Below are positions 36,577-46,714 of a stretch of DNA of 64,000 nucleotides, piece after piece. This DNA comes from a virus (lineage: Duplodnaviria > Caudoviricetes), in the IMG/VR virus record IMGVR_UViG_3300023174_000037, one strand, 5' to 3'. A model generated the notes under the pieces. It made no database searches. It saw nothing but the letters and a program-made list of their open reading frames with translations, and was not told the origin of the DNA. Each line of letters opens with the position of its first letter. Positions within the stretch are counted from its first letter, which is position 1. The translations under genes and the position numbers were made by a program.

Positions 36577-36668
36577 TGGTACCCCCGGCGGGAATCGAAC
36601 CCACATGAACCAATTATCTGTTGCTTACGGGATATAAATCCGCCGTTTTACCGTTAAACTACAGGGGC
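36577..36668 (-). tRNA. tRNA-Ile(UAU) with a 22-nt variable region
   Basis: Loop UUUAUAU, A31.C39 mismatch, canonical T-arm, CCA. Confidence 0.8.
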
Positions 36669-36673
36669 AAATT

Positions 36674-36747
36674 TGGTGCTCTAACGTAGAATCGAACTAC
36701 GATTACTGTCATACCAAGACAGAGTTCTGCCATTAAACTATAAGAGC
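36674..36747 (-). tRNA. tRNA-Thr(GGU)
   Basis: Loop UUGGUAU, CCA. Confidence 0.93.
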
Positions 36748-36752
36748 AAACA

Positions 36753-36827
36753 TGGAGCAGGATATCGGGGTCGAACCGATGACCTACACGTTGGCAACGT
36801 GTCGTTCTTCCACTGAACTAATCCTGC
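36753..36827 (-). tRNA. tRNA-Gly(GCC)
   Basis: Loop UUGCCAA, U73, CCA. Confidence 0.95.
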
Positions 36828-36832
36828 ATGAT

Positions 36833-36920
36833 TGGCGGAGAGTATCAGATTCGAACTGATGCGCCTCTTTCGAAACGACAGTTTAGCAAACTGCTGGTTT
36901 AACCACTCACCCAACTCTCC
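36833..36920 (-). tRNA. tRNA-Ser(GCU)
   Basis: Loop UUGCUAA, long V-arm, G73, CCA. Confidence 0.95.
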
Positions 36921-36927
36921 GTTATCT

Positions 36928-37002
36928 TGGTAGCCACGGTTGGGAACGATCCAACGGCCTAACGCTTATCAAGCGTTTGCTCTACCACTGAGCTACGCGG
37001 CT
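36928..37002 (-). tRNA. tRNA-Ile(GAU), atypical T-loop AUCGUUC
   Basis: Loop UUGAUAA, CCA. Confidence 0.92.
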
Positions 37003-37010
37003 ATATTGAA

Positions 37011-37230
37011 TTTGTTAAAGTAGCAGCACCACATTATTGCTGCCATTCACCCGAATTAACAAGCTCGAGCGGGAGTCGGTAAGTTACTTGGGATACCGGT
37101 CCAGTTTAGTCGCCTCAATGGACCCCTGCAGTTTCCCGCAGGGTGGGTGTCGAACCCATCACCTTCTACTGCGTTGGTCCTTCGAAGAAACCTAGACAGC
37201 GTGACTTTCTCTTGCTAACACTCTAACAAA
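37011..37230 (-). ncRNA. Unclassified 220-nt structured RNA between tRNA-Val and tRNA-Ile
   Basis: 11-bp terminal stem, GAAA and GCGA tetraloop hairpins, T-arm-like UGGG-UUCGACA-CCCA; no credible ORF. Confidence 0.7.
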
Positions 37231-37233
37231 ACT

Positions 37234-37309
37234 TGGTACCTGAGACTGGACTCGAACCAGTATCGCTCTCCTTGTAAGGGAGACGTATAACCTCTCTACG
37301 CACTCAGGC
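37234..37309 (-). tRNA. tRNA-Val(UAC)
   Basis: Loop CUUACAA, CCA. Confidence 0.95.
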
Positions 37310-37337
37310 TTTATATTCTCTAAGAACGACCCATGTA

Positions 37338-37416
37338 TGGTCCGAGTAGAAGGATTCGAACCTTCGATCTCCTGCTCCCAAAGCAGGCGGATTAAACCAG
37401 ACTTTCCTACACTCGG
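37338..37416 (-). tRNA. tRNA-Pro(UGG)
   Basis: Loop UUUGGGA, CCA. Confidence 0.95.
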
Positions 37417-37418
37417 AG

Positions 37419-37462
37419 AAAAGAAAAACCACCAAGCTGTCCCCGAAGGCAACAGAAGGTGG
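37419..37462 (-). terminator. Terminator-like hairpin directly upstream of tRNA-Pro
   Basis: CCACC...C-UUCG-G...GGUGG followed by UUUUUCUUUU. Confidence 0.55.
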
Positions 37463-37476
37463 CCGTATTAAAAAGG

Positions 37477-37595
37477 TGAACAAGTCGTTATCACTGCCAC
37501 GCCCGGATATAATTACTCGCTCGGCAAGGGTACGTCACTAGACGGTTAGGAAAGGTAACCCGTGTGCATTTAACACTGCTCAAACAACTTGTTCA
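37477..37595 (-). ncRNA. Unclassified 119-nt multi-branch RNA downstream of tRNA-Met
   Basis: 13-bp terminal stem UGAACAAGUUGUU/AACGACUUGUUCA; inner hairpins GGUUA/UAACC and CGUC/GACG. Confidence 0.6.
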
Positions 37596-37599
37596 TAGT

Positions 37600-37674
37600 T
37601 GGTGGAAATAAGTAGATTCGAACTACTGACCTGCGCCGTATGAAGGCGATGCACTACCGCTGTGCTATATTTCC
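37600..37674 (-). tRNA. tRNA-Met(CAU), probably elongator
   Basis: Loop UUCAUAC, G1-C72 paired, CCA. Confidence 0.85.
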
Positions 37675-37678
37675 AAAT

Positions 37679-37753
37679 TGGCGGTCTGTGGGGGAATCGA
37701 ACCCCCGTAAGTGGATAGACAATCCACAGTAATAACCTCTATACGAACAGACC
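37679..37753 (-). tRNA. tRNA-Asp(GUC), U at position 37
   Basis: Loop UUGUCUA, G73, CCA. Confidence 0.93.
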
Positions 37754-37759
37754 TAAAAT

Positions 37760-37837
37760 TGGAGCAACGGGCGTGATTTGAACACGCGGTTTTACGGATT
37801 TGCAATCCGTTGCATTGGACCACTCTGCCACCGTTGC
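37760..37837 (-). tRNA. tRNA-Cys(GCA)
   Basis: Loop UUGCAAA, U73, CCA. Confidence 0.95.
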
Positions 37838-37844
37838 ATAAAAT

Positions 37845-37921
37845 TGGCTCCCCGTCGTGGGCTCGAACCACGGACATCGACATTAACAGTGTCGCGCAAC
37901 TACCAACTGTGCTAACGGGGA
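37845..37921 (-). tRNA. tRNA-Asn(GUU)
   Basis: Loop CUGUUAA, U1-A72, G73, CCA. Confidence 0.95.
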
Positions 37922-37929
37922 ATAAAAAC

Positions 37930-38003
37930 TGGAGCGGAGTGAGAGAATCGAACTCTCGACCGAAGATTGGAAATCTGCTGTTTTGCCATTAAACTAACCC
38001 CGC
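37930..38003 (-). tRNA. tRNA-Gly(UCC)
   Basis: Loop UUUCCAA, U73, CCA. Confidence 0.93.
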
Positions 38004-38011
38004 AAAATGCT

Positions 38012-38249
38012 TTCTGTCCGTCGTGGTAATTATAGTGTATCAGAAATTTGGTCAGGCTTTACCCCAATTAATCTTTCATCACTTACACCCTCCACCCACT
38101 CGCCACGGACAGAACTCTCGTGTTGCCAACGCTGGTTTGGTCGACCCCATGGATGAACCCATGTCCTCTAATTTAATAGAGAAGAACCACCCTACTGAGG
38201 ACAACTCAGTTTCATTTCCTCTGGGTCAGAGTAGCAGTTGTGAAGCTGC
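38012..38249 (-). ncRNA. Structured leader/ncRNA between a promoter and tRNA-Gly
   Basis: Five short hairpins followed by a 10-bp stem UUCUGUCCGU/ACGGACAGAA enclosing about 80 nt. Confidence 0.55.
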
Positions 38250-38264
38250 ATGTTCAATAATACA

Positions 38265-38293
38265 ATTATACTTGATTATGGTTACAATGTCAA
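38265..38293 (-). promoter_or_regulatory. Consensus sigma70 promoter inside the tRNA array
   Basis: TTGACA-17-TATAAT. Confidence 0.88.
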
Positions 38294-38304
38294 GCATACT
38301 TTTT

Positions 38305-38389
38305 TGGTGCGACTGGCCGGAATCGAACCGGCACACCCGAAAGCGAGAGATTTTAAGTCTCTTGTGTCTACCTATTTCACCACAGTCGC
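38305..38389 (-). tRNA. tRNA-Leu(UAA), long V-arm
   Basis: Loop CUUAAAA, CCA. Confidence 0.95.
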
Positions 38390-38399
38390 ATTTTATCAC

Positions 38400-38476
38400 T
38401 GGTGCCCAAGGAGAGACTCGAACTCTCAAAATACGGCTTCTAAGACCGGCATGTATACCAATTCCATCACCTGGGC
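38400..38476 (-). tRNA. tRNA-Leu(UAG), short variable loop
   Basis: Loop CUUAGAA, 5-nt V-loop, A73, CCA. Confidence 0.9.
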
Positions 38477-38500
38477 CTGAATTTTTAAAGAACAAGCGCA

Positions 38501-38529
38501 ATTGTAGCGTTTATTCTTTATGTTGTCAA
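38501..38529 (-). promoter_or_regulatory. sigma70-type promoter
   Basis: TTGACA-17-TACAAT. Confidence 0.75.
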
Positions 38530-38999
38530 CCGTTAACTATCTTAAGGCCTCTTATTCTGTCTGCTGCATAGCTGGCCGCAAATGCCTGTGGCTTTACTAA
38601 CGGAACAACATTACAGGTGCCTTTGATGTAGCCAATCGCTTGTGCGACTACATTACTGCTGGCATGATGATCATCTGGATTGATATCCAGGTGAACTTCA
38701 ACTGCTCTATCTTCCAGCACTTCGGCAAGTTTCAAGTATAGTTCGCTTACTTTATACACTTCGATCATTAGTCTTGTGTTAGGTTTGTTTACACGATCGT
38801 AATCACGTTCACGTGTAACTTCGCCAAACAATTTACAACCATTGTTACCGTTGATATGAACCACAATGGCCGCAGTATAAATGCCATACCATTGCTTATC
38901 GTGACCTCTGACACGCTCGCTATCCACACCAATATAGATACGTGTGTCTGGGCCTTGCGCTTCTATAAATTGTTTAATGTGTGGGATATCAAACTTCAT
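38526..38999 (-). CDS. RNase H-like YkuK (DUF458) family protein
   Basis: IYIGVDS, RLMIEV, VHLDIN, KPQAFAASYAAD. Confidence 0.8.
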   Translation of the reverse strand: MKFDIPHIKQFIEAQGPDTRIYIGVDSERVRGHDKQWYGIYTAAIVVHINGNNGCKLFGEVTRERDYDRVNKPNTRLMIEVYKVSELYLKLAEVLEDRAVEVHLDINPDDHHASSNVVAQAIGYIKGTCNVVPLVKPQAFAASYAADRIRGLKIVNG

Positions 39000-39027
39000 T
39001 ATTATCTTTCTATATATTAACTACATC

Positions 39028-39119
39028 TGGCGGAAAGCAGAGGAGTCGAACCCCATCCCATTTCTGAGAACCTGGTTTTCAAGGCCAGTCGCAGGACCAT
39101 CCCCGCTGCATTACTTTCC
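39028..39119 (-). tRNA. tRNA-Ser(UGA) with 8/4 acceptor/T-stem fold
   Basis: GGAAAGUA/UGCUUUCC 8 bp, T-stem GGGG/CCUC 4 bp, loop CUUGAAA, V-arm, G73. Confidence 0.85.
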
Positions 39120-39124
39120 ATATT

Positions 39125-39198
39125 TGGCATACCCCCAGGGACTCGAACCCCGACTAATAGTTTTGGAGACTAGTGTGCTGCCATTACACTAGGGGCAT
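39125..39198 (-). tRNA. tRNA-Trp(CCA)
   Basis: Loop CUCCAAA, G73, CCA. Confidence 0.93.
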
Positions 39199-39205
39199 AT
39201 TAAAC

Positions 39206-39280
39206 TGGTACTCGGAAGGGGAATCGAACCCCTCTTCCCGCCGTGAAAGGGCGGTGTCCTAACCGATAGACGACCCGAGC
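39206..39280 (-). tRNA. tRNA-Glu(UUC)
   Basis: Loop CUUUCAC, CCA. Confidence 0.95.
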
Positions 39281-39287
39281 AAAAACT

Positions 39288-39376
39288 TGGTGGAAGTGGT
39301 TGGATTCGAACCAACAATGTTTCTTATGTGGCGGATTTACAGTCCGTTGCCTTCAACCAATTCAGCGCACACTTCC
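39288..39376 (-). tRNA. tRNA-Tyr(GUA)
   Basis: Loop CUGUAAA, long V-arm, A73, CCA. Confidence 0.95.
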
Positions 39377-39381
39377 CAACT

Positions 39382-39457
39382 TGGTGGAGGATATCGGACT
39401 CGAACCGATCACCCCTAGCTTGCAAAGCTAGTGCTCTCCCAGATGAGCTAAACCCCC
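39382..39457 (-). tRNA. tRNA-Ala(UGC)
   Basis: G3.U70, loop UUUGCAA, CCA. Confidence 0.95.
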
Positions 39458-39459
39458 AA

Positions 39460-39657
39460 TTATTTCTTATCTAGCTTTGGTTCTTCATAAACCATTGCTT
39501 CTTTTTCTACATAGACTGGAAAAAATTTCCAACCAAAACTTTTCCAATACTTGTGAATGATATTGTTGATAACAACTGCTGTTACTACAACAACAATAAA
39601 CCCAAGTCCTGTCAAAATTGAACCTGCTAAAAATACTGCTGCTTGATCAATGTCCAT
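39460..39657 (-). CDS. Small membrane protein, 65 aa (MDIDQAAVF...)
   Basis: RBS AAAGGAG; one long hydrophobic helix. Confidence 0.75.
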   Translation of the reverse strand: MDIDQAAVFLAGSILTGLGFIVVVVTAVVINNIIHKYWKSFGWKFFPVYVEKEAMVYEEPKLDKK

Positions 39658-39671
39658 GCTTACTCCTTTAA

Positions 39672-39746
39672 TGGTTGCGGGGGAAGGAATCGAACCTCCG
39701 GCTTCCAGGTTATGAGCCTGGCGGTCTACCGCTGACGTACCCCGCG
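39672..39746 (-). tRNA. Initiator tRNA-fMet(CAU)
   Basis: C1.A72 mismatch, loop CUCAUAA; A29-U41 replaces the first of the three G-C pairs. Confidence 0.9.
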
Positions 39747-39812
39747 ATATTAGGTGTAGGGCTTCCACCTACTCCCACCTCGTTTTAAAGTCCGCGTGTC
39801 CAGGACTTGATC

Positions 39813-40397
39813 TTACATGGTAGGACCATTTCCGTTCTTAAATCCCACCACACCGCCTTCTGCCTCAATACGTTTGATAACGTCTTCAAACAGGATAGGT
39901 GCAAAGTCAGTTTGTTCTACACAAACACAGTGATACCTAGTATCAACAATGTCAGTGATCTTGCCATTGAATCCTGGCAACATGACACGATTGGCATGCA
40001 AGTGTCCGTGGATGTTGACGCCAAAACGACCCAGACTTTCCGAGTGGATAGGAATGTGACTCAGGATCATTCCATTCATAACATGGTAAGCACGAAGTTC
40101 ACGAAAGTGTTCACGGTATTCACTGTCTCTGAAGATATCATGGTTACCACGGATCAACACCTTGTCACCGTTTAACCTGCGCATGATGCCTAAGGCTTTA
40201 CGGTTGATAACAACGTCACCTAAATGATAGACCTTGTCAGTGGGTTTTACCCGTTCGTTCCACGCCTTGACCATAGCTTCGTCCATCTCCTCTGCGGAAT
40301 CCCATGGACGAAGTTTTGTAACACCATCGTTACGTGTGAAGCGGCATACACCTGTGTGTCCAAAGTGCGTGTCGCTTACTAAAAATACACTAGGCAT
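39813..40397 (-). CDS. Calcineurin-like metallophosphoesterase
   Basis: SDTHFGH, HLGD, GNHD, SH, HGHLH. Confidence 0.93.
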   Translation of the reverse strand: MPSVFLVSDTHFGHTGVCRFTRNDGVTKLRPWDSAEEMDEAMVKAWNERVKPTDKVYHLGDVVINRKALGIMRRLNGDKVLIRGNHDIFRDSEYREHFRELRAYHVMNGMILSHIPIHSESLGRFGVNIHGHLHANRVMLPGFNGKITDIVDTRYHCVCVEQTDFAPILFEDVIKRIEAEGGVVGFKNGNGPTM

Positions 40398-40908
40398 CTT
40401 GCCCTCCTTTCTTATCTGTTAAATGCTGTCTATAATCGGCTCTCCAACTGTGAGTCGAATCCTCACTATCGTAAGTCCACCCCAACAAGCGCATCATTTT
40501 ATGCTTGACCAACAAGTTAGGACTACGAAATCTTTCACAATCTCCAAATCCCATCATTACACCTATCTCGCACACTGCACCCGACCTGCAAATGCCAGCA
40601 TGACAGTGAACAACCACATTCATCCGATTTTCCCAGGCATGTTGCAACAATCGGACAAGTTGTTCTGCTTGCTCATCTGTGATGGCAAATTCACTGAGGT
40701 CAATTGTTCGACCGTCACCGGTGGTTGTTACACCTTCTTCTTCTTCTATATCCAAAAACGTAAATTGATGAATTTCTTTAAACGTATGCTTGGGTGTAGG
40801 GAACGCCATGTCGTGGTCTGAAATCTGTATCAGCATACTGTTGGCACCACAATCGTGATGCCTTCCTGTTGCTACATTTTCTAAAGGTATATTTTCAATC
40901 CACGGCAT
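40390..40908 (-). CDS. Cys-based (PTP/dual-specificity) phosphatase
   Basis: HCHAGICRS (HCx5R). Confidence 0.85.
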   Translation of the reverse strand: MPWIENIPLENVATGRHHDCGANSMLIQISDHDMAFPTPKHTFKEIHQFTFLDIEEEEGVTTTGDGRTIDLSEFAITDEQAEQLVRLLQHAWENRMNVVVHCHAGICRSGAVCEIGVMMGFGDCERFRSPNLLVKHKMMRLLGWTYDSEDSTHSWRADYRQHLTDKKGGQDA

Positions 40909-40928
40909 AATTGTCTCTTTCTAACTGT

Positions 40929-40957
40929 ATTATAGCTGATTGGCTATTTTGGGTCAA
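40929..40957 (-). promoter_or_regulatory. sigma70-type promoter
   Basis: TTGACC-17-TATAAT. Confidence 0.8.
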
Positions 40958-40968
40958 CCAACTAATTT

Positions 40969-40986
40969 GTAATACGTTTGTATTAC
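40969..40986. promoter_or_regulatory. Palindromic operator-like site, copy 2
   Basis: GTAATAC-GTTT-GTATTAC, 11 nt upstream of a -35 box. Confidence 0.55.
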
Positions 40987-40988
40987 GA

Positions 40989-41315
40989 TCATGCAGTCAT
41001 CCAGCGTTCCTCTGATTCGAGCACCAAACTTTCTGAACCATCATACTCGTCTATGCGGAACCTGGCACCCACTGGCACCCATTCTACTTGTAAATCTTCT
41101 GCCCCTCCGCAGTATGCTTCAGGATATTTTAACTCCATGTAGGTAAGAATTTTATCAAGTTCTTTGTTTTCAATCCAGGTCACAACACAAGGATCGTAGA
41201 CTAGTTCTTCGATATGGTGCCAAGTATACCAACCAGCACCGTATCCTGGACTTACCAACACAGCTACTCGACCATCACGAATTAATTTATTTGGCAATGA
41301 CATGATTTTCTCCAT
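40989..41315 (-). CDS. Hypothetical protein
   Basis: VAVLVSPGYGAGW...FRIDEYDGSE. Confidence 0.8.
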   Translation of the reverse strand: MEKIMSLPNKLIRDGRVAVLVSPGYGAGWYTWHHIEELVYDPCVVTWIENKELDKILTYMELKYPEAYCGGAEDLQVEWVPVGARFRIDEYDGSESLVLESEERWMTA

Positions 41316-41336
41316 AACACACTCTTATGAATGTGT

Positions 41337-41404
41337 GTATTAAAGCACACTCACCCGAATGGACCTTGTCACCTCCGCCTACTGTCGGAAGTGTGCTTTA
41401 ATAC
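41337..41404 (-). ncRNA. Stem-capped 68-nt RNA cassette related to the 55-nt spacer RNA
   Basis: 16-bp stem GUAUUAAAGCACACUU/GAGUGUGCUUUAAUAC; shares GUGAGUGUGCUU with 36241-36295. Confidence 0.55.
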
Positions 41405-41510
41405 GCTGTGATTTTTCGCTCCACAAAAGGAGTTTCATCCCACAGGCCGCCCGTTTGTGCTTGTTTATAGTGTAGCACAGGACCTCGTTTCCTGCAACCA
41501 CTTTGTGCTG

Positions 41511-41675
41511 TTAGTTTACACTAAACGTTGGTGCTTTTGCTAACGCTTGGTGATACACTCTGGCACGTTCGAACTTATCTTGAATAAGTTTCTGAAGTTG
41601 TTCTTTATTCAAAACAGCTTCATAAGCCTGTTCAATGACACGTTCATTTAATTTTGTATGATCTATCTTTTCCAT
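41511..41675 (-). CDS. Small protein, 54 aa (MEKIDHTKLNERVIEQAYEAV...), first gene after the attenuator
   Basis: Hand-translated; RBS AAAGGA. Confidence 0.65.
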   Translation of the reverse strand: MEKIDHTKLNERVIEQAYEAVLNKEQLQKLIQDKFERARVYHQALAKAPTFSVN

Positions 41676-41687
41676 TTTTCCTTTTCT

Positions 41688-41781
41688 AAAAACAAAAAAC
41701 CCCAGGGTTTTTAATCCTAGGGTTCTTTAAGTTTGAGTAGTATCTGCTATTTAAGCGTACCCACTTCCCTTCAAGAACCCT
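41688..41781 (-). terminator. Attenuator: mutually exclusive antiterminator (2:3) and intrinsic terminator (3:4)
   Basis: Seg2 AGGGUUCUUGAAG (41769-41781), seg3 CUUAAAGAACCCUAGG (41716-41731), seg4 CCUGGGGUU plus UUUUGUUUUU. Confidence 0.8.
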
Positions 41782-41906
41782 GAGCTAATATAGCCCTCTG
41801 GTGTGCGATCTAATGATAGACTATTGTTCGCAAACCAAGAGGTCAGCGTCAAGCATACCTGTTTGGCTATGGAACTAAATTGTCTATGTAAAGATAGCGA
41901 TTTCAT
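41751..41906 (-). CDS. Putative attenuator leader peptide, 51 aa
   Basis: MKSLSLHRQFSSIAKQVCLTLTSWFANNSLSLDRTPEGYISSGFLKGSGYA; stop lies in the antiterminator loop. Confidence 0.65.
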   Translation of the reverse strand: MKSLSLHRQFSSIAKQVCLTLTSWFANNSLSLDRTPEGYISSGFLKGSGYA

Positions 41907-41962
41907 TTTTGTTTCTGGTTTCCTAAAATTTTACAAACAGCATCATTGCTGTCTATGTGTTT

Positions 41963-41991
41963 ATTATACAGTTATTTAGTCTCGTTGTCAA
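41963..41991 (-). promoter_or_regulatory. Consensus sigma70 promoter of the leader/tRNA operon
   Basis: TTGACA-17-TATAAT. Confidence 0.88.
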
Positions 41992-42046
41992 CCTCTAAGT
42001 TTGTTTTTTTATCTTTTTCTTAAAAATATTTTTCAACTAAGTGTCA

Positions 42047-42075
42047 AGTATACACTGGATGTCATTCAAGGTCAA
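42047..42075 (-). promoter_or_regulatory. sigma70-type promoter
   Basis: TTGACC-17-TATACT. Confidence 0.65.
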
Positions 42076-42083
42076 CCAGCCGT

Positions 42084-42110
42084 AAAAAAAGACACCTAGG
42101 TGTCTTTTTA
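42084..42110. terminator. Bidirectional intrinsic terminator
   Basis: AAAAAGACAC-CTAG-GTGTCTTTTT. Confidence 0.75.
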
Positions 42111-42129
42111 TTTCTAGTAGAGTTAACTA

Positions 42130-42855
42130 TTAGAATGCTTTGCCTACTGAAAAGACTGCGGCATTGCGATATAGCTTTTGACCATTCACGGTGTTGGCTG
42201 TGTTGAATGTGCTAGTCTTGTCGCCGTTGGTGTAATACTTAGCGGCCAAGTTCCAACCTTGTAGGTTGTAACCTACACCAAAATTGTAATCATTGTAGTC
42301 CAATGAAGAACTGTTAGCAACATTAGTCTTACCTGCGTGAGCAAGCAAACTGATCTTTGATCCAGCGATTGGATATGCTACATCAGCTTGGTAGTATGCT
42401 GTGCCTTGTGCATTGGCTGTACCAAAATAACCATTGCCTAGTGTACGATTATACTTGACACTAACTGGACCATAACCTAGACCAACATAACCTTCGTATG
42501 TGTCAAAGTTTGAACCTGTCTTAGCTGAAGTAGTAGAACGTGGATAAAAATAGTTATAAGAACCAACATCAAGTGTTAGGCCTTTATAAATGTCTTTCTT
42601 CCAACCCGCATATACATCAGACTCAACACCCGAACCGTTTGTGTAAACTTGTGAGCTTACTGAACTGTTCCAGTTACCGATATAGAAACCGCTGGAGTGA
42701 TTGTAGTCAATGCCGCCTTGGACAGCAGGAGCATTTTGGGATTGACTGATGCCGCGGAAACGGTAGTCACTTGTCAAGCCTAAATTGCCAGATACTTGAG
42801 CATGAGCAGAAGTAATGCCAGCCAATACGAATAATGCTAATAGTAATTTCTTCAT
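42130..42855 (-). CDS. TorF-type putative outer-membrane porin (TIGR02001-like)
   Basis: Signal peptide; SGNLGLTSDYRFRGISQS, PAVQGGIDY, GFYIGNW, C-terminal F. Confidence 0.88.
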   Translation of the reverse strand: MKKLLLALFVLAGITSAHAQVSGNLGLTSDYRFRGISQSQNAPAVQGGIDYNHSSGFYIGNWNSSVSSQVYTNGSGVESDVYAGWKKDIYKGLTLDVGSYNYFYPRSTTSAKTGSNFDTYEGYVGLGYGPVSVKYNRTLGNGYFGTANAQGTAYYQADVAYPIAGSKISLLAHAGKTNVANSSSLDYNDYNFGVGYNLQGWNLAAKYYTNGDKTSTFNTANTVNGQKLYRNAAVFSVGKAF

Positions 42856-42974
42856 TTGTTTTATTTCCTTTTAAAAGTAATGCTTAGAATAATATTTAGT
42901 GGGTTTCACGAGTGGCCTGTAATTTTTGCACACTTTCCTACCACTTTTATAGTTAACGGCATAGTTAACTGGCT

Positions 42975-43000
42975 AAAAAAGAGCCCACCGAAGCGGGCTC
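42975..43000 (-). terminator. Intrinsic terminator after the tmRNA
   Basis: GAGCCCGC-UUCG-GUGGGCUC-UUUUUU. Confidence 0.88.
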
Positions 43001-43345
43001 TTGTTATTTTCTGTTACGAGGTATAACTACCCTATCGCGGTGATTAAACTGCGAAAGATGTGGCTTTCACTGTACGAGCAGAGAACTTGACGTTCTTACC
43101 TGAAACAGTTACTTCGCCTGTAGATGTTTTTGCATTTACATTATTTGCTTGATTTACAGTCATCGCCTACTGTGTTGCCGTCTCTATTATCTCACCCTGT
43201 CGAAACCATGGCAGGCCCATTATGAAGTATACTCACGTTTCTTATGTCTCTGTTGGCTATGTGCCAACCGAATATACTTTATGGTGGACCTGGCGGGAGT
43301 CGAACCCGCGTCCAGAATGCCTTCACTTTGAAGGGATTACAACAA
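43001..43345 (-). ncRNA. ssrA: Circularly permuted (two-piece) tmRNA
   Basis: Acceptor piece ...GCGGGUUCGACUCCCGCCAGGUCCACCA (3' end 43282) precedes the coding piece starting GGGCCUG (43218); G3.U70; tag ORF 43133-43044. Confidence 0.92.
43225..43279 (-). ncRNA. 55-nt structured RNA, copy 2 (tmRNA intervening sequence)
   Basis: 10-bp closing stem, GUUGGC/GCCAAC hairpin, AGAGACAUAAGAAACGU. Confidence 0.8.
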
Positions 43346-43349
43346 TTCT

Positions 43350-43589
43350 TTAATACACTGCAACAGGTATTGCGGGACTAAATCCTGCTAGTAGCGACTG
43401 ATAACCGTTTGCGCTTTCGGTGCTACTCCACATTCTAACATTTGTTGTAGTATCAGCAGTGTTGCTCCATATGTATACCTGTCCGTTGGTTGTTCCTGCA
43501 GTTGTTTGTGCGCTGATATAGCTAGCTAACTGGGAAGTTTCAGCCTCAGTGAGCACTCGAGGTACAGTTATTTCTGTAAAATATGCCAT
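43350..43589 (-). CDS. Hypothetical protein
   Basis: RBS AAGGAG; lies between csp and ssrA. Confidence 0.75.
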   Translation of the reverse strand: MAYFTEITVPRVLTEAETSQLASYISAQTTAGTTNGQVYIWSNTADTTTNVRMWSSTESANGYQSLLAGFSPAIPVAVY

Positions 43590-43644
43590 TTAAAAACTCC
43601 TTTTTTAGTATGTGCTATCAAATACAAATAGCACTATTAACTAC

Positions 43645-43848
43645 TTATGCCGGCACAATATTTGATGCCTGCTTGCCTTTTGGGCCCTGAACCAAGTCAA
43701 ATTTTACCACTTGGTTTTCTTTTAATGTTTTAAATCCATTAATATTAATTGCTGAAAAATGTGCAAATACATCCTCGCCGCCGTCATCTGGTGTAATGAA
43801 TCCAAAACCTTTTGCATCATTAAACCATTTTACTTTACCTACTACCAT
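43645..43848 (-). CDS. Cold-shock domain protein (CspA family)
   Basis: [15 protein letters not shown] (RNP1), DVFAHFSAI (RNP2), KGKQASNI. Confidence 0.97.
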
Positions 43849-43882
43849 ATATTACTACTTCCTTTTAAATTAAACATGAGTG

Positions 43883-44062
43883 CTAATTATAGCCTTTTAC
43901 AACATTTTTGTCAACCTTGGGATTACCTTTTGCATGGGCATCTTGATGTGATTGCCTCATGCGATCACGTTCGGTTGGCAACTTTCCACAACCCAACCGA
44001 TCCCATTCTTTTTCAGAATAGTAATACTGGTCAACGGGTTTTTTCTGCTGCTTCACGATCAT
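43883..44062 (-). CDS. Hypothetical protein, 59 aa
   Basis: Hand-translated; YYYSEKEWDRLGCG. Confidence 0.55.
   Translation of the reverse strand: MIVKQQKKPVDQYYYSEKEWDRLGCGKLPTERDRMRQSHQDAHAKGNPKVDKNVVKGYN
43886..43914 (-). promoter_or_regulatory. Consensus sigma70 promoter of the csp-orf79-ssrA unit
   Basis: TTGACA-17-TATAAT. Confidence 0.85.
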
Positions 44063-44077
44063 ACTATTTAGCTTGTT

Positions 44078-44154
44078 TGGTGGGCCAGGTGGGATTCTAA
44101 CCCACGATCAATGCTTTATGAGAACACTGCTTTAGGACACTAAGCTACTGGCCC
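44078..44154 (-). tRNA. tRNA(CAU), probably Ile2 (lysidine type); degenerate D- and T-loops
   Basis: GGGCCAG acceptor, loop CUCAUAA, T-loop UUAGAAU, CCA. Confidence 0.75.
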
Positions 44155-44162
44155 GGATACGT

Positions 44163-44191
44163 AGTATAGCACTAAGGCTCGTAGTTGTCAA
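44163..44191 (-). promoter_or_regulatory. sigma70-type promoter directly before tRNA(CAU)
   Basis: TTGACA-17-TATACT. Confidence 0.75.
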
Positions 44192-44543
44192 GGAATTGTT
44201 TGAGATTTCCGTATAAATTTACCATAACTGCTTCTCGGCTGCCAAAAAATACAATCTTTTTAGGTATGCCTTTGACAGCATGAATGTAGTAAGGCATTTG
44301 CATTTTACGGTCTAATTTTAGAATCAATTGTTTATTAAACGTATGTGGATCGTCGATACTGTATGAGTAATGTTCTAGATCTAGGTCTTCTGAAAGTGTT
44401 TGATAACCAGTGCCGGTCAATCTCATGCCACCGTTACGCCGCAAATTAAACCACCAACTGGGAACGGCACTTTCTACACTAATCCGTTGTTCGTCAGGTA
44501 ATAGTGCAATTAGCTCTTCTGTGAGTTTTCTTTTATCACGCAC
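44172..44543 (-). CDS. Hypothetical protein
   Basis: ORF in operon. Confidence 0.75.
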   Translation of the reverse strand: MRDKRKLTEELIALLPDEQRISVESAVPSWWFNLRRNGGMRLTGTGYQTLSEDLDLEHYSYSIDDPHTFNKQLILKLDRKMQMPYYIHAVKGIPKKIVFFGSREAVMVNLYGNLKQFLDNYEP

Positions 44544-44544
44544 A

Positions 44545-44832
44545 TCAAGGATAAACCTGATTGCCTGCAGTCAACAAAACCACAGTGAACTTTTCAGTTT
44601 TAAATTGTGTGTTTAATTTTTTTGCCAAGTTCTTGGCATGCCCAGGATTACTAAATGAAACTTTTTTGTATTTGGGGCCTGGATATTGGACCAGTAAGTT
44701 TGACGTTTTGAGATTGATAGGTTTAGCATCATAGAACACAGCCCATACACCTTCCGAAGCCAAAACCTGCTCACTCTTATAGGTGGCCTTGTTTGTGTGC
44801 TCGATCAATACATTGGGTTTTGGACGACTCAT
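44545..44832 (-). CDS. Hypothetical protein
   Basis: ORF with RBS AGGAG. Confidence 0.8.
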   Translation of the reverse strand: MSRPKPNVLIEHTNKATYKSEQVLASEGVWAVFYDAKPINLKTSNLLVQYPGPKYKKVSFSNPGHAKNLAKKLNTQFKTEKFTVVLLTAGNQVYP

Positions 44833-44877
44833 ATCATTAAACTCCTATATTTTATTTATCTAGAAATATAGGTAGTT

Positions 44878-45093
44878 TTAGAATGTGCCACCATCCATTT
44901 TTACGGTAATTGTTTCTGTGTCTTTTTGGAGGGTTTTAACTGTGTGTTCACGTAAAGCCTGAAGTTCTAGTAGTAGTCTAGTGATATCGGCGTGTAGGTC
45001 CTGGGCATCTTTCAAACTCATAATAAAGTCTCGGGCTCCACGAGCTTGCTGACCTTGAACTCGCTCAATAAATTTACTTAGATGAATTGTCAT
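44878..45093 (-). CDS. Hypothetical protein (start at MTIHL)
   Basis: ORF track; internal ATG. Confidence 0.7.
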   Translation of the reverse strand: MTIHLSKFIERVQGQQARGARDFIMSLKDAQDLHADITRLLLELQALREHTVKTLQKDTETITVKMDGGTF

Positions 45094-45532
45094 GAGCTTC
45101 TTGTTCTGAGTAATACGGGCCTTGATATGGATAGCGTTGCAACACAATTAATTTTGGCGCCAGCACTGTTCGCCAATGACGGCCTTTACGCACATTATAC
45201 CATCCGGCTGAGAACCACGATTTACTTTTATTGGTCTTGGTGTAAACTGGTAACTGTTGACTAACGTCCCACATGGGATTGTATACTCGGCCTGCCACCG
45301 GATAGCCATGAACATGAGCCACGGTTGTCTTGGGACGGGTAACGGTTACCGCTGGTTCAAATATAATATTAGCATTTCGAGCCGCTAACTTTATGGTCTT
45401 GTATTGTGCAATCTGATTATTGATCTTTACTTGATAACCACCTGCACAGGCTTCTATGTTTCCGACCTTTTGATTATTTTCTTGTAATATCCAAAATTGT
45501 TTGTCTATTACGGGTTTTGCTATTAATGTCAT
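45074..45532 (-). CDS. Hypothetical protein
   Basis: ORF in operon. Confidence 0.8.
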   Translation of the reverse strand: MTLIAKPVIDKQFWILQENNQKVGNIEACAGGYQVKINNQIAQYKTIKLAARNANIIFEPAVTVTRPKTTVAHVHGYPVAGRVYNPMWDVSQQLPVYTKTNKSKSWFSAGWYNVRKGRHWRTVLAPKLIVLQRYPYQGPYYSEQEAHDNSSK

Positions 45533-45720
45533 TTGTTACTCCTTTTTCTACATTCTTCTTGTACCTTAACAGGTACATCAGGATGCCATCCCCCGATGAG
45601 AATCCTGCAATCGTACTGCACAACAACTACATTGCCTTTACTGCTGGGCCAAAATGCCAAGACCAATGACCCAATTGCAATACTAACTACTACTGCGGCC
45701 CAGACAATATCCTTAGCCAT
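45529..45720 (-). CDS. Small membrane-anchored protein
   Basis: N-terminal hydrophobic helix; YDC...C. Confidence 0.7.
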   Translation of the reverse strand: MAKDIVWAAVVVSIAIGSLVLAFWPSSKGNVVVVQYDCRILIGGWHPDVPVKVQEECRKRSNK

Positions 45721-46714
45721 TTAACACACCTTTGTATGTTTCGTTCATCCAACGACCAAACGAGTCGGCACTTTCACTACATTTGTTCAATTCATACTTG
45801 CCACAGAACTGCATAAAACGCACACCAACTTGGCCAATGTCTTTGTGACTGATCTGCTCACGTATGGCAGCATCTACTGTATCTTTAATAGATTGTGGTT
45901 GTGCTGTCAGATCAATCAGTTCTCGATTACGTTCGTAATCATCTAACACTCTATGCTCTACACCATCTGGATCACTCCAGCGTTGCAGCATCATGTTGTT
46001 CCAATTATATCCTCGAGTCTTGCGATCTTTAAACGCCTCTTGGAGACCAACTTTATTTTTTGTTCCTTTAGTTCGAACACCTGGATAAGCCGAAAACACA
46101 TTGTCACTGCTGTCTCCTCGCATACACTTTTCAAAAAGTAGCCACTCCGGATTGGGAATTGTTTTTGGTTCTTTGGTTTTTTTATCAATGACGGCCTTTC
46201 CTTTGGCATCAAAGATTCCATCTATAGTGATTAGTTCGTCTGTGATACCATTATATTGTTTGACATTGGGTGCTACCAATTGAACAAAGTCTGTGTCACT
46301 GCTGATAACAATATGTTCATCTTGGGGGTGTAGTGCAATCCAGCGAGCGATGATATCGTCGCCTTCTGCTGTAGGACATCTTACAACTGAGCAGTTGGTT
46401 CTTTCACTCAAGTATTTAGTCAAACTATCATAAGTTTCCCAAAACATTTTATCTTCATCTGCTTGTGCTTCTGTCAGCGCAGCCCGGGCTACAGCACGGT
46501 TGTTTTTGTAGGGTTTATAGTAGTCTTTGCGCCAACTGCGTCCTTCCAAGGCAAATACCACATGATCAGCTTCAAAACGTCTAGCGACCTTGTTGGCACT
46601 CATTAGGGTTACATGGAGGGCAAATCCAATTTTCTCCCACGTGTCAGCGGCACGAAAAGCACCGTGTCTAGCACGAAAGAACATATTAGCCGTATCTATA
46701 AGAACATATTTCAT
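45713..46714 (-). CDS. 5'-3' exonuclease / RNase H (T4 rnh, flap-endonuclease family)
   Basis: LIDTANMFFR, AEGDDII, SSDTDFVQL, GDSSDNV. Confidence 0.92.
   Translation of the reverse strand: MKYVLIDTANMFFRARHGAFRAADTWEKIGFALHVTLMSANKVARRFEADHVVFALEGRSWRKDYYKPYKNNRAVARAALTEAQADEDKMFWETYDSLTKYLSERTNCSVVRCPTAEGDDIIARWIALHPQDEHIVISSDTDFVQLVAPNVKQYNGITDELITIDGIFDAKGKAVIDKKTKEPKTIPNPEWLLFEKCMRGDSSDNVFSAYPGVRTKGTKNKVGLQEAFKDRKTRGYNWNNMMLQRWSDPDGVEHRVLDDYERNRELIDLTAQPQSIKDTVDAAIREQISHKDIGQVGVRFMQFCGKYELNKCSESADSFGRWMNETYKGVLNG

Follow-up and report, generated by a model that had tools for sequence, protein, structure and literature searches.

Why do large phages carry tRNA genes, and how is the expression of those genes regulated? 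The finding reported here bears on both questions and concerns a giant phage of freshwater metagenomes, present in lake and freshwater sequencing runs, of which we analyzed a stretch of 64,000 nucleotides (referred to as the window). The window's p54 protein, introduced below, is encoded on a 349,716-base contig. Recent work ties phage tRNAs to escape from host defences that cut tRNAs. A preliminary description, made from the letters alone, had interpreted a promoter, short ORF and terminator upstream of the tRNA array as an attenuator of trp/his geometry, whose leader peptide would sense tRNA depletion or translation arrest in general and not the supply of one amino acid. Two questions follow, namely whether this element is built as a switch operated by ribosomes and, if it is, what it senses and which genes it controls. 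A full-text literature search found no paper on tRNA genes, or phage tRNA arrays, controlled by leader-peptide attenuation.

Anatomy of the leader region

The module lies entirely on the minus strand and comprises a promoter, an ORF and a 2:3 pairing set against a 3:4 terminator (Table 1). The perfect sigma70 promoter and the 51-codon leader ORF of the preliminary description were both recovered, as were the AGGA motif 14 nt from the ATG and the internal promoters at 40929, 38501 and 38265. With a 5' UTR of 56 nt, the start in the window is not leaderless, unlike that of most of the family, and the AGGA is badly spaced.

Table 1 Coordinates of the proposed attenuator element and of neighboring features in the window
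Feature	Position	Strand	Basis or remark
Sigma70-type consensus promoter, TTGACA-17-TATAAT	41963..41991	-	12/12 matches, promoter scan
5' UTR hairpin ACAGCA-AUGA-UGCUGU, relic ATGATG inside	41937..41952	-	Sequence and fold
AGGA, Shine-Dalgarno-like	41921..41924	-	14 nt upstream of ATG
Leader ORF, 51 codons	41751..41906	-	ORF list; stop codon 41753-41751
Segment 2, AGGGUUCUUGAAG, antiterminator 5' arm, within ORF codons 42-46	41769..41781	-	
Segment 3, CUUAAAGAACCCU, antiterminator 3' arm, overlapping terminator 5' arm	41719..41731	-	
Predicted intrinsic terminator, 10-bp stem, 9-nt A-rich loop, UUUUUUGUUUUU tract	41688..41725	-	-14.2 kcal/mol
p54, 54-aa helical protein, first gene past the terminator, good ribosome-binding site	41511..41675	-	
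Conserved structured RNA, ~190 nt, between p54 and a 108-aa ORF	41312..41508	-	
Promoter before phosphatase genes	40957-40929	-	Promoter scan
Two phosphatase genes behind own promoter	39813-40908	-	Between attenuator unit and tRNA array
tRNA array, 29 tRNA genes, all 20 amino acids	32947..39746	-	Begins 1.9 kb downstream of the switch
Internal promoter feeding the array	38529-38501	-	Promoter scan
Second candidate leader: perfect promoter and, 13 nt on, a 19-codon ORF	38293-38265 (promoter); 38251-38192 (ORF)	-	
Porin-like Gcw_chp outer-membrane protein, signal peptide	42130-42855	-	Pfam E = 1e-49; upstream of leader
Two-piece (permuted) tmRNA, betaproteobacterial type	43101-43394	-	RF04321 123 bits, RF01850 119 bits; upstream
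67-aa ORF with cold-shock-domain motifs KGFGFI and VFAHF	43645-43848	-	After perfect sigma70-type promoter 43914-43886

Segments 2 and 3 pair at 12 of 13 positions, as had been described, and this pairing is used in the minimum-energy fold of the whole leader. Segment 3 can alternatively enter the terminator stem with segment 4; because ACCCU is common to segment 3 and the terminator 5' arm, the antiterminator and the terminator are predicted to be mutually exclusive. The terminator stem spans 41725-41697, and the U-tract runs to 41688. The stop codon sits in the 2:3 loop, again as first described, 28 nt ahead of the terminator CCC, and segment 2 precedes this codon by 15-27 nt, which places it just behind, not under, a terminating ribosome. 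Folded alone, the antiterminator region of the window reaches -28.3 kcal/mol and the terminator -14.2 kcal/mol, and the leader RNA as a whole folds with z = -4.9 relative to 200 shuffles.

Metatranscriptome contigs match 41744-41906 without mismatch and cover the terminator region more deeply. As assembled contigs they show presence in RNA libraries only, giving no transcript ends, strand or level, and they were not counted as expression evidence.

A family of leaders with an open frame and a fixed stop position

Searches with the neighboring genes led to 47 viral contigs, a 23-nt terminator pattern led to 60 more, and the window's own subfamily was reached through p54 homologues. The resulting family set, drawn from viral and metagenome contigs, comprises about 50 unique elements together with 10 different leaders of that subfamily, one of them the window's. 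DNA similarity between the window and the first related loci ends at the leader ORF, and the 51-aa peptide had no tblastn hit in those loci; the reading of the leader as an orphan ORF was rejected as a problem of sensitivity. Alignment by position, at loci with the same neighbors, revealed a promoter, a small ORF, a conserved-loop terminator and then a p54 homologue, with homologous leader ORFs in relatives L108-L121.

Every element of the family has a promoter and an ATG, and the ORF, of 20-51 codons, is open throughout; in the relatives, the distance from promoter to terminator is 126-217 nt. The ATG lies 6-11 nt past the -10 hexamer in most members, which implies that most are transcribed as leaderless mRNAs. 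Members of the window's subfamily instead have a 5' UTR of 29-58 nt, in which there is a small hairpin whose stem sequence is member-specific (read by eye), and 6-17 nt separate a UUAGGA-like motif from the AUG.

The stop codon was found 24-34 nt before the terminator CCC in all elements, independent of ORF length. A ribosome at a stop codon represses a nearby intrinsic terminator, with termination full again beyond ~30 bp (PMC4824070). The spacing agrees with that measurement, in that the stop would be far enough away for the terminator to form and near enough for the ribosome to hold segment 2.

Peptide sequences are far less constant than this geometry. The window peptide is 36-90% identical to the other leader peptides of its subfamily, in which W24, D33, R34 and P36 are invariant, and a W together with an N-(S/N)-D-R motif is widespread in long leaders, where the nucleotides are also kept (AAU AGU/AAU GAU CGU). 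Differences between close pairs numbered 164, 114 and 207 at codon positions 1, 2 and 3, respectively, and the codon changes comprised 107 synonymous and 222 non-synonymous ones. Judged by these substitutions, the leader reading frame is preserved and the peptide sequence is drifting.

These patterns bear on the possibility that the element acts as RNA only, either as a small RNA or as a switch that a protein or tRNA would work by binding the conserved A-rich terminator loop, with the ORF incidental. The leader RNA is indeed strongly structured (z = -4.9), the terminator loop (of the ACUAAACAC type) is unusually conserved, and in other systems terminated attenuator RNAs are reported to act in trans (PMC6614838). 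The loop conservation, however, is partly an artefact of searching with the loop sequence, and an incidental ORF would not account for about 60 diverged members that keep an open frame, a start at or near the 5' end and a fixed stop register, nor for a third codon position that is the most variable. The link between leader composition and downstream tRNAs, described below, is sensible only if the frame is translated. Moreover, no Rfam family, T-box included, matched 41688-41991 at up to E = 1 in a search covering 32000-46000. We regard an RNA-only element as very improbable.

A conserved and covarying antiterminator

In most relatives, segment 2 includes the stop codon and forms 12-17 bp with the stretch up to and including the terminator CCC. 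Among 22 representatives with segments 3 less than 80% identical, cognate segment 2/3 duplexes had a mean of -14.4 kcal/mol versus -9.3 kcal/mol for permuted partners (z = -9.4, 0/20,000 permutations). When pairs were compared in a fixed register, pairs 1-3 were invariant G-C, pair 5 was U-A in 25 elements and C-G in 18, and pair 6 was C-G in 25 and U-A in 17. RNAalifold on MAFFT alignments of the antiterminator region returned the GGGU/ACCC core at most, or nothing, because bulges and spacer lengths move the register. On the strength of the duplex energies and compensatory pairs, we take the 2:3 helix to be real, conserved and covarying. Together with a terminator hairpin kept in >60 contigs, this helix is what the preliminary description had expected homologues to retain.

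The antiterminator was predicted to be stabler than the terminator in 43/47 elements (means of -18.3 and -14.5 kcal/mol, respectively). Its GGG core precedes the stop by 3-13 nt in 46/58 elements and by 19-25 nt in those of the window's type. When transcripts ending before segment 3 were folded, no consistent partner of segment 2, and hence no conserved 1:2 hairpin, was found (mean core pairing probability of 0.59). With no consistent upstream partner found for segment 2, the design looks, in these folding models, like a two-state switch rather than the four-segment trp design, with read-through as the default in the absence of a ribosome. The trp/his geometry originally proposed is therefore retained for its two exclusive structures, which are conserved and covary.

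Leader composition follows the downstream tRNA set

A recount of the window leader agreed with the preliminary figures: 41 different codons, among them all six for Ser, and the full set of 20 amino acids. With the start codon set aside, the remaining 50 codons are of 40 kinds. Uniform codon use predicts 34.3 ± 2.3 of 50 (P = 0.01 for 40), close to an earlier hand estimate of about 35 for 51 codons; the phage's own codon usage sets a lower expectation of 31.1 ± 2.4 (P about 1e-4), and a count of 40 was not attained in any of 1166 real 50-codon gene windows. Of the 27 distinct anticodons among the phage tRNAs, 26 are represented in the leader, compared with 20.9 ± 1.9 for gene windows (P = 0.006). 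The leader is not enriched in codons that phage tRNAs can read, at 42/51 (82%) versus 85% in genes. The element had been called pan-codon, a term that these percentages do not bear out; the match between leader and array is at the level of amino acids or tRNA species, not of codons, and pan-amino-acid, matching the array, is the better wording. Each amino acid has few codons in the window leader, and these are mostly not in tandem.

The same correspondence extends across the family. Over 33 elements, only 6 amino-acid types of the arrays were absent from the leaders, compared with 42.3 ± 4.1 expected for random leaders with an equal number of types; in the informative subset of 10 leaders that lack three or more types, there were 5 misses versus 24.3 expected. 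Short leaders, in which L, N, G, T, A, E, D and P predominate, are followed by Gly, Glu, Leu, Ile, Asp, Asn, Thr and Ala tRNAs. The 12 downstream tRNAs of one relative read 17 of the 21 leader codons, and the leader in front of a set of Trp-Pro-Cys-Met-Thr-Ser-Gly tRNAs has three Cys and one Trp. Across the family, the amino acids of a leader track those of the tRNAs behind it.

Complete leaders were also in excess. All 20 amino acids occur in 10/50 leaders (0.4 expected), the excess of amino-acid types amounts to a Stouffer z of 5.0 over 17 peptide clusters, and 10/10 distinct subfamily leaders of 38-51 aa, which were chosen solely via window-type p54 genes downstream, hold all 20 (0.4 expected), although these completeness statistics overstate independence because relatives share ancestry. 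One complete subfamily leader has just 38 residues. Among subfamily members, Cys, Tyr, Phe and His fall in differing alignment columns, which argues for selection on presence, not position. The idea of a broad decoding sensor, as opposed to a sensor of a single amino acid, holds up better than expected, through a composition that tracks the tRNA set and the presence of all 20 amino acids throughout the subfamily.

Composition also weighs on an alternative in which the leader is a ribosome-arrest peptide comparable to TnaC, SecM or antibiotic leaders, responding to one ligand or factor, with its breadth of composition secondary. W24, D33, R34 and P36 would fit such a peptide, as would the recurrence of W and N-(S/N)-D-R in most long leaders at both the amino-acid and nucleotide levels. 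Yet leaders of 20-22 aa that stand directly before tRNAs lack both the W and the motif with the switch intact, and the conserved nucleotides could equally serve an RNA helix within the ORF. An arrest peptide would leave unexplained why composition tracks the array and why 20 amino acids are kept with shifting rare residues, and we consider it unlikely. The invariant W, D-R and P and the N-(S/N)-D-R motif nevertheless suggest an extra constraint, specific to peptide or RNA, beyond what an attenuator would impose, and this leaves the arrest-peptide reading some weight.

Genes behind the proposed switch

Same-strand tRNA genes were found within 1.5 kb in 43/51 elements, and in 5 of the remaining 8 the contig ends within about 300 nt. 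The first tRNA begins 9-30 nt after the terminator hairpin in six elements; this gap leaves no space for a promoter, so that read-through is the one visible source of transcription for the tRNAs of these six. Elsewhere in the family the terminator is followed first by p54, by the structured RNA or by both, and in some relatives the structured RNA directly follows the terminator.

In the window, the minus-strand order after the terminator is p54, a non-coding stretch of ~190 nt, the 108-aa ORF, a second promoter, two phosphatase genes and the tRNAs. The first controlled products would be p54 and the structured RNA, the array being 1.9 kb away with promoters of its own. Control of the tRNA array, as originally proposed, is supported by the relatives, in which the module heads arrays, and would be less direct in the window, where another promoter intervenes.

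The 377 relatives of p54 are all proteins from metagenomes, without an informative name among them; p54 matched no Pfam or PHROG family, and the ESM Atlas gave no lead. The structured RNA, which almost every related locus carries between the attenuator and the tRNAs, shows compensatory changes at 22 of 42 predicted pairs and includes a hairpin with the loop AACGAGR. It matched no Rfam family in the search over 32000-46000. A 55-nt RNA that occurs twice (36241-36295 and 43225-43279) has only the GUGAGUGUGCUU stem end in common with the structured RNA, and a true third copy was rejected. One metatranscriptome contig (run X18) joins 41457 to 41685, passing from the terminator region to the structured RNA and skipping p54, an arrangement that agrees with the relatives in which the structured RNA comes directly after the terminator.

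The gene order and spacing can be set against another reading in which the ORF is an ordinary micropeptide gene and a leaky terminator sets the ratio of products, ribosome position having no regulatory role. The ORF is conserved under weak protein-level constraint, and gene callers annotate it in some metagenomes, both in favor of such a gene. It would, however, offer no reason for a 2:3 helix that covaries and takes in both the end of the ORF and an arm of the terminator, or for a stop-to-terminator spacing fixed at 24-34 nt over ORFs of 20-51 codons. Leader composition that tracks the tRNA arrays, and the dependence of tRNA genes on read-through in some relatives, 9-30 nt after the terminator, also speak against it. 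We judge a plain micropeptide gene to be quite improbable.

Proposed mechanism

Taken as a reading of sequence patterns, the element is probably (at roughly 0.65) a ribosome-mediated transcription attenuator of a phage translation-supply operon. For this attenuator we infer leader translation, termination, the polarity of the switch and its physiological trigger. Host RNA polymerase would initiate at the consensus promoter, and a ribosome would translate the leader ORF behind the polymerase. A ribosome that keeps pace to the end of the ORF would unwind or block segment 2, given that the stop lies inside segment 2 in most relatives and in the 2:3 loop in the window. The freed segment 3 would then form the terminator with segment 4, and transcription would stop at the U-tract. 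If the ribosome is slow, stalled at a hungry codon or absent, the stabler 2:3 helix would form first and the polymerase would continue into p54, the structured RNA and eventually the tRNA genes.

As every amino acid of the array (here 20) is present in the leader, the transit of the ribosome would integrate decoding over the whole tRNA set. Phage tRNA production would probably be turned up when ribosomes slow, amounting to a demand-driven negative feedback on phage tRNA supply. We give an even chance to a stronger version, in which phage tRNA arrays operate on demand, the leader has been selected to contain every amino acid of the array (all 20 where the phage has a complete set), ribosome and RNA polymerase run a kinetic race on it, and any shortfall in decoding switches on tRNA transcription. 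Such a shortfall might come from codon-usage mismatch, starvation, host tRNA decay or defence nucleases that cut tRNAs. Host tRNA nucleases, the trigger suggested in the preliminary description, are plausible but hypothetical.

Comparison with known attenuators and implications

In the trpL, his, leu and phe leaders, a ribosome that arrives at the stop promotes termination, and one that stalls promotes read-through. The phage element resembles these systems in its promoter-proximal ORF, in a terminator that precedes the regulated genes and in an antiterminator that shares a strand with that terminator and has its other arm at the ORF end. It differs in its targets, which are tRNAs, a structured RNA and a small protein, whereas the enterobacterial ones are biosynthetic enzymes. 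Moreover, the phage leaders have no run of a single codon and contain many or all amino acids, showed no conserved 1:2 hairpin in the transcripts folded and are mostly leaderless. Classical attenuators gain sensitivity through runs of codons. The thr and ilvGMEDA leaders sense two or three related amino acids via clustered codons, and the phage leaders are like them in that several amino acids would be sensed by one leader, but they hold 9 to all 20 types, matched to the tRNA array.

T-box riboswitches bind one uncharged tRNA directly and do not need translation. Read-through of a terminator controlled by tRNA status would be common to both, but the phage element carries a conserved ORF and has no T-box match in Rfam. 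In the leader of mef/mel(msr(D)) (PMC4335068), any strong slowing of the ribosome turns a terminator into an antiterminator, making the leader a sensor of translation stress. A short leader ORF on which a slowed ribosome leads to an antiterminator is the shared feature; the difference is that the mef/mel(msr(D)) leader responds to drug-bound ribosomes at peptide motifs and controls resistance proteins, while the phage element has tRNA targets and no known ligand.

If the attenuator reading is true, the phage gauges decoding capacity directly and makes tRNAs only on need. Leader-peptide attenuation, known from amino-acid biosynthesis and for one to three amino acids, would thereby reach tRNA genes, all twenty amino acids and leaderless mRNAs. 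The on-demand version, if true, would amount to a general principle of how viral tRNA genes are controlled, and would give the phage an inbuilt means of sensing attack on translation. The element would also be a compact natural part that reports global elongation speed.

Phage, host and neighboring genes

No DNA match to the attenuator region was found by blastn, and no match to p54 by tblastn, in searches against cultured-phage records; on this basis no laboratory phage with the module is known. The type of the two-piece tmRNA encoded upstream suggests that the host is a betaproteobacterium. This tmRNA, whose tag-peptide frame was called by ARAGORN, is an additional phage investment in translation. 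The Gcw_chp porin-like gene adjoins the attenuator in dozens of related phage contigs. Of the two phosphatases, one is dual-specificity/PTP-like and the other a calcineurin-like metallophosphoesterase (PHROG 547).

Within the array, ARAGORN made two odd calls, namely a tRNA-Ser with anticodon ACU (33235-33324, minus strand) and a 92-nt tRNA-Ile with anticodon UAU (36577-36668, minus strand), the latter over-long and possibly containing an insert. The 19-codon ORF of the second candidate leader has its final codons and stop inside the 5' arm of a terminator-like hairpin (38207-38184); it is followed by tRNA-Gly, Asn, Cys, Asp, Met and Pro, and its peptide has N, C, D, M and P. Further upstream of the attenuator, an 11-codon mini-ORF overlaps the start of the 67-aa cold-shock-like ORF.
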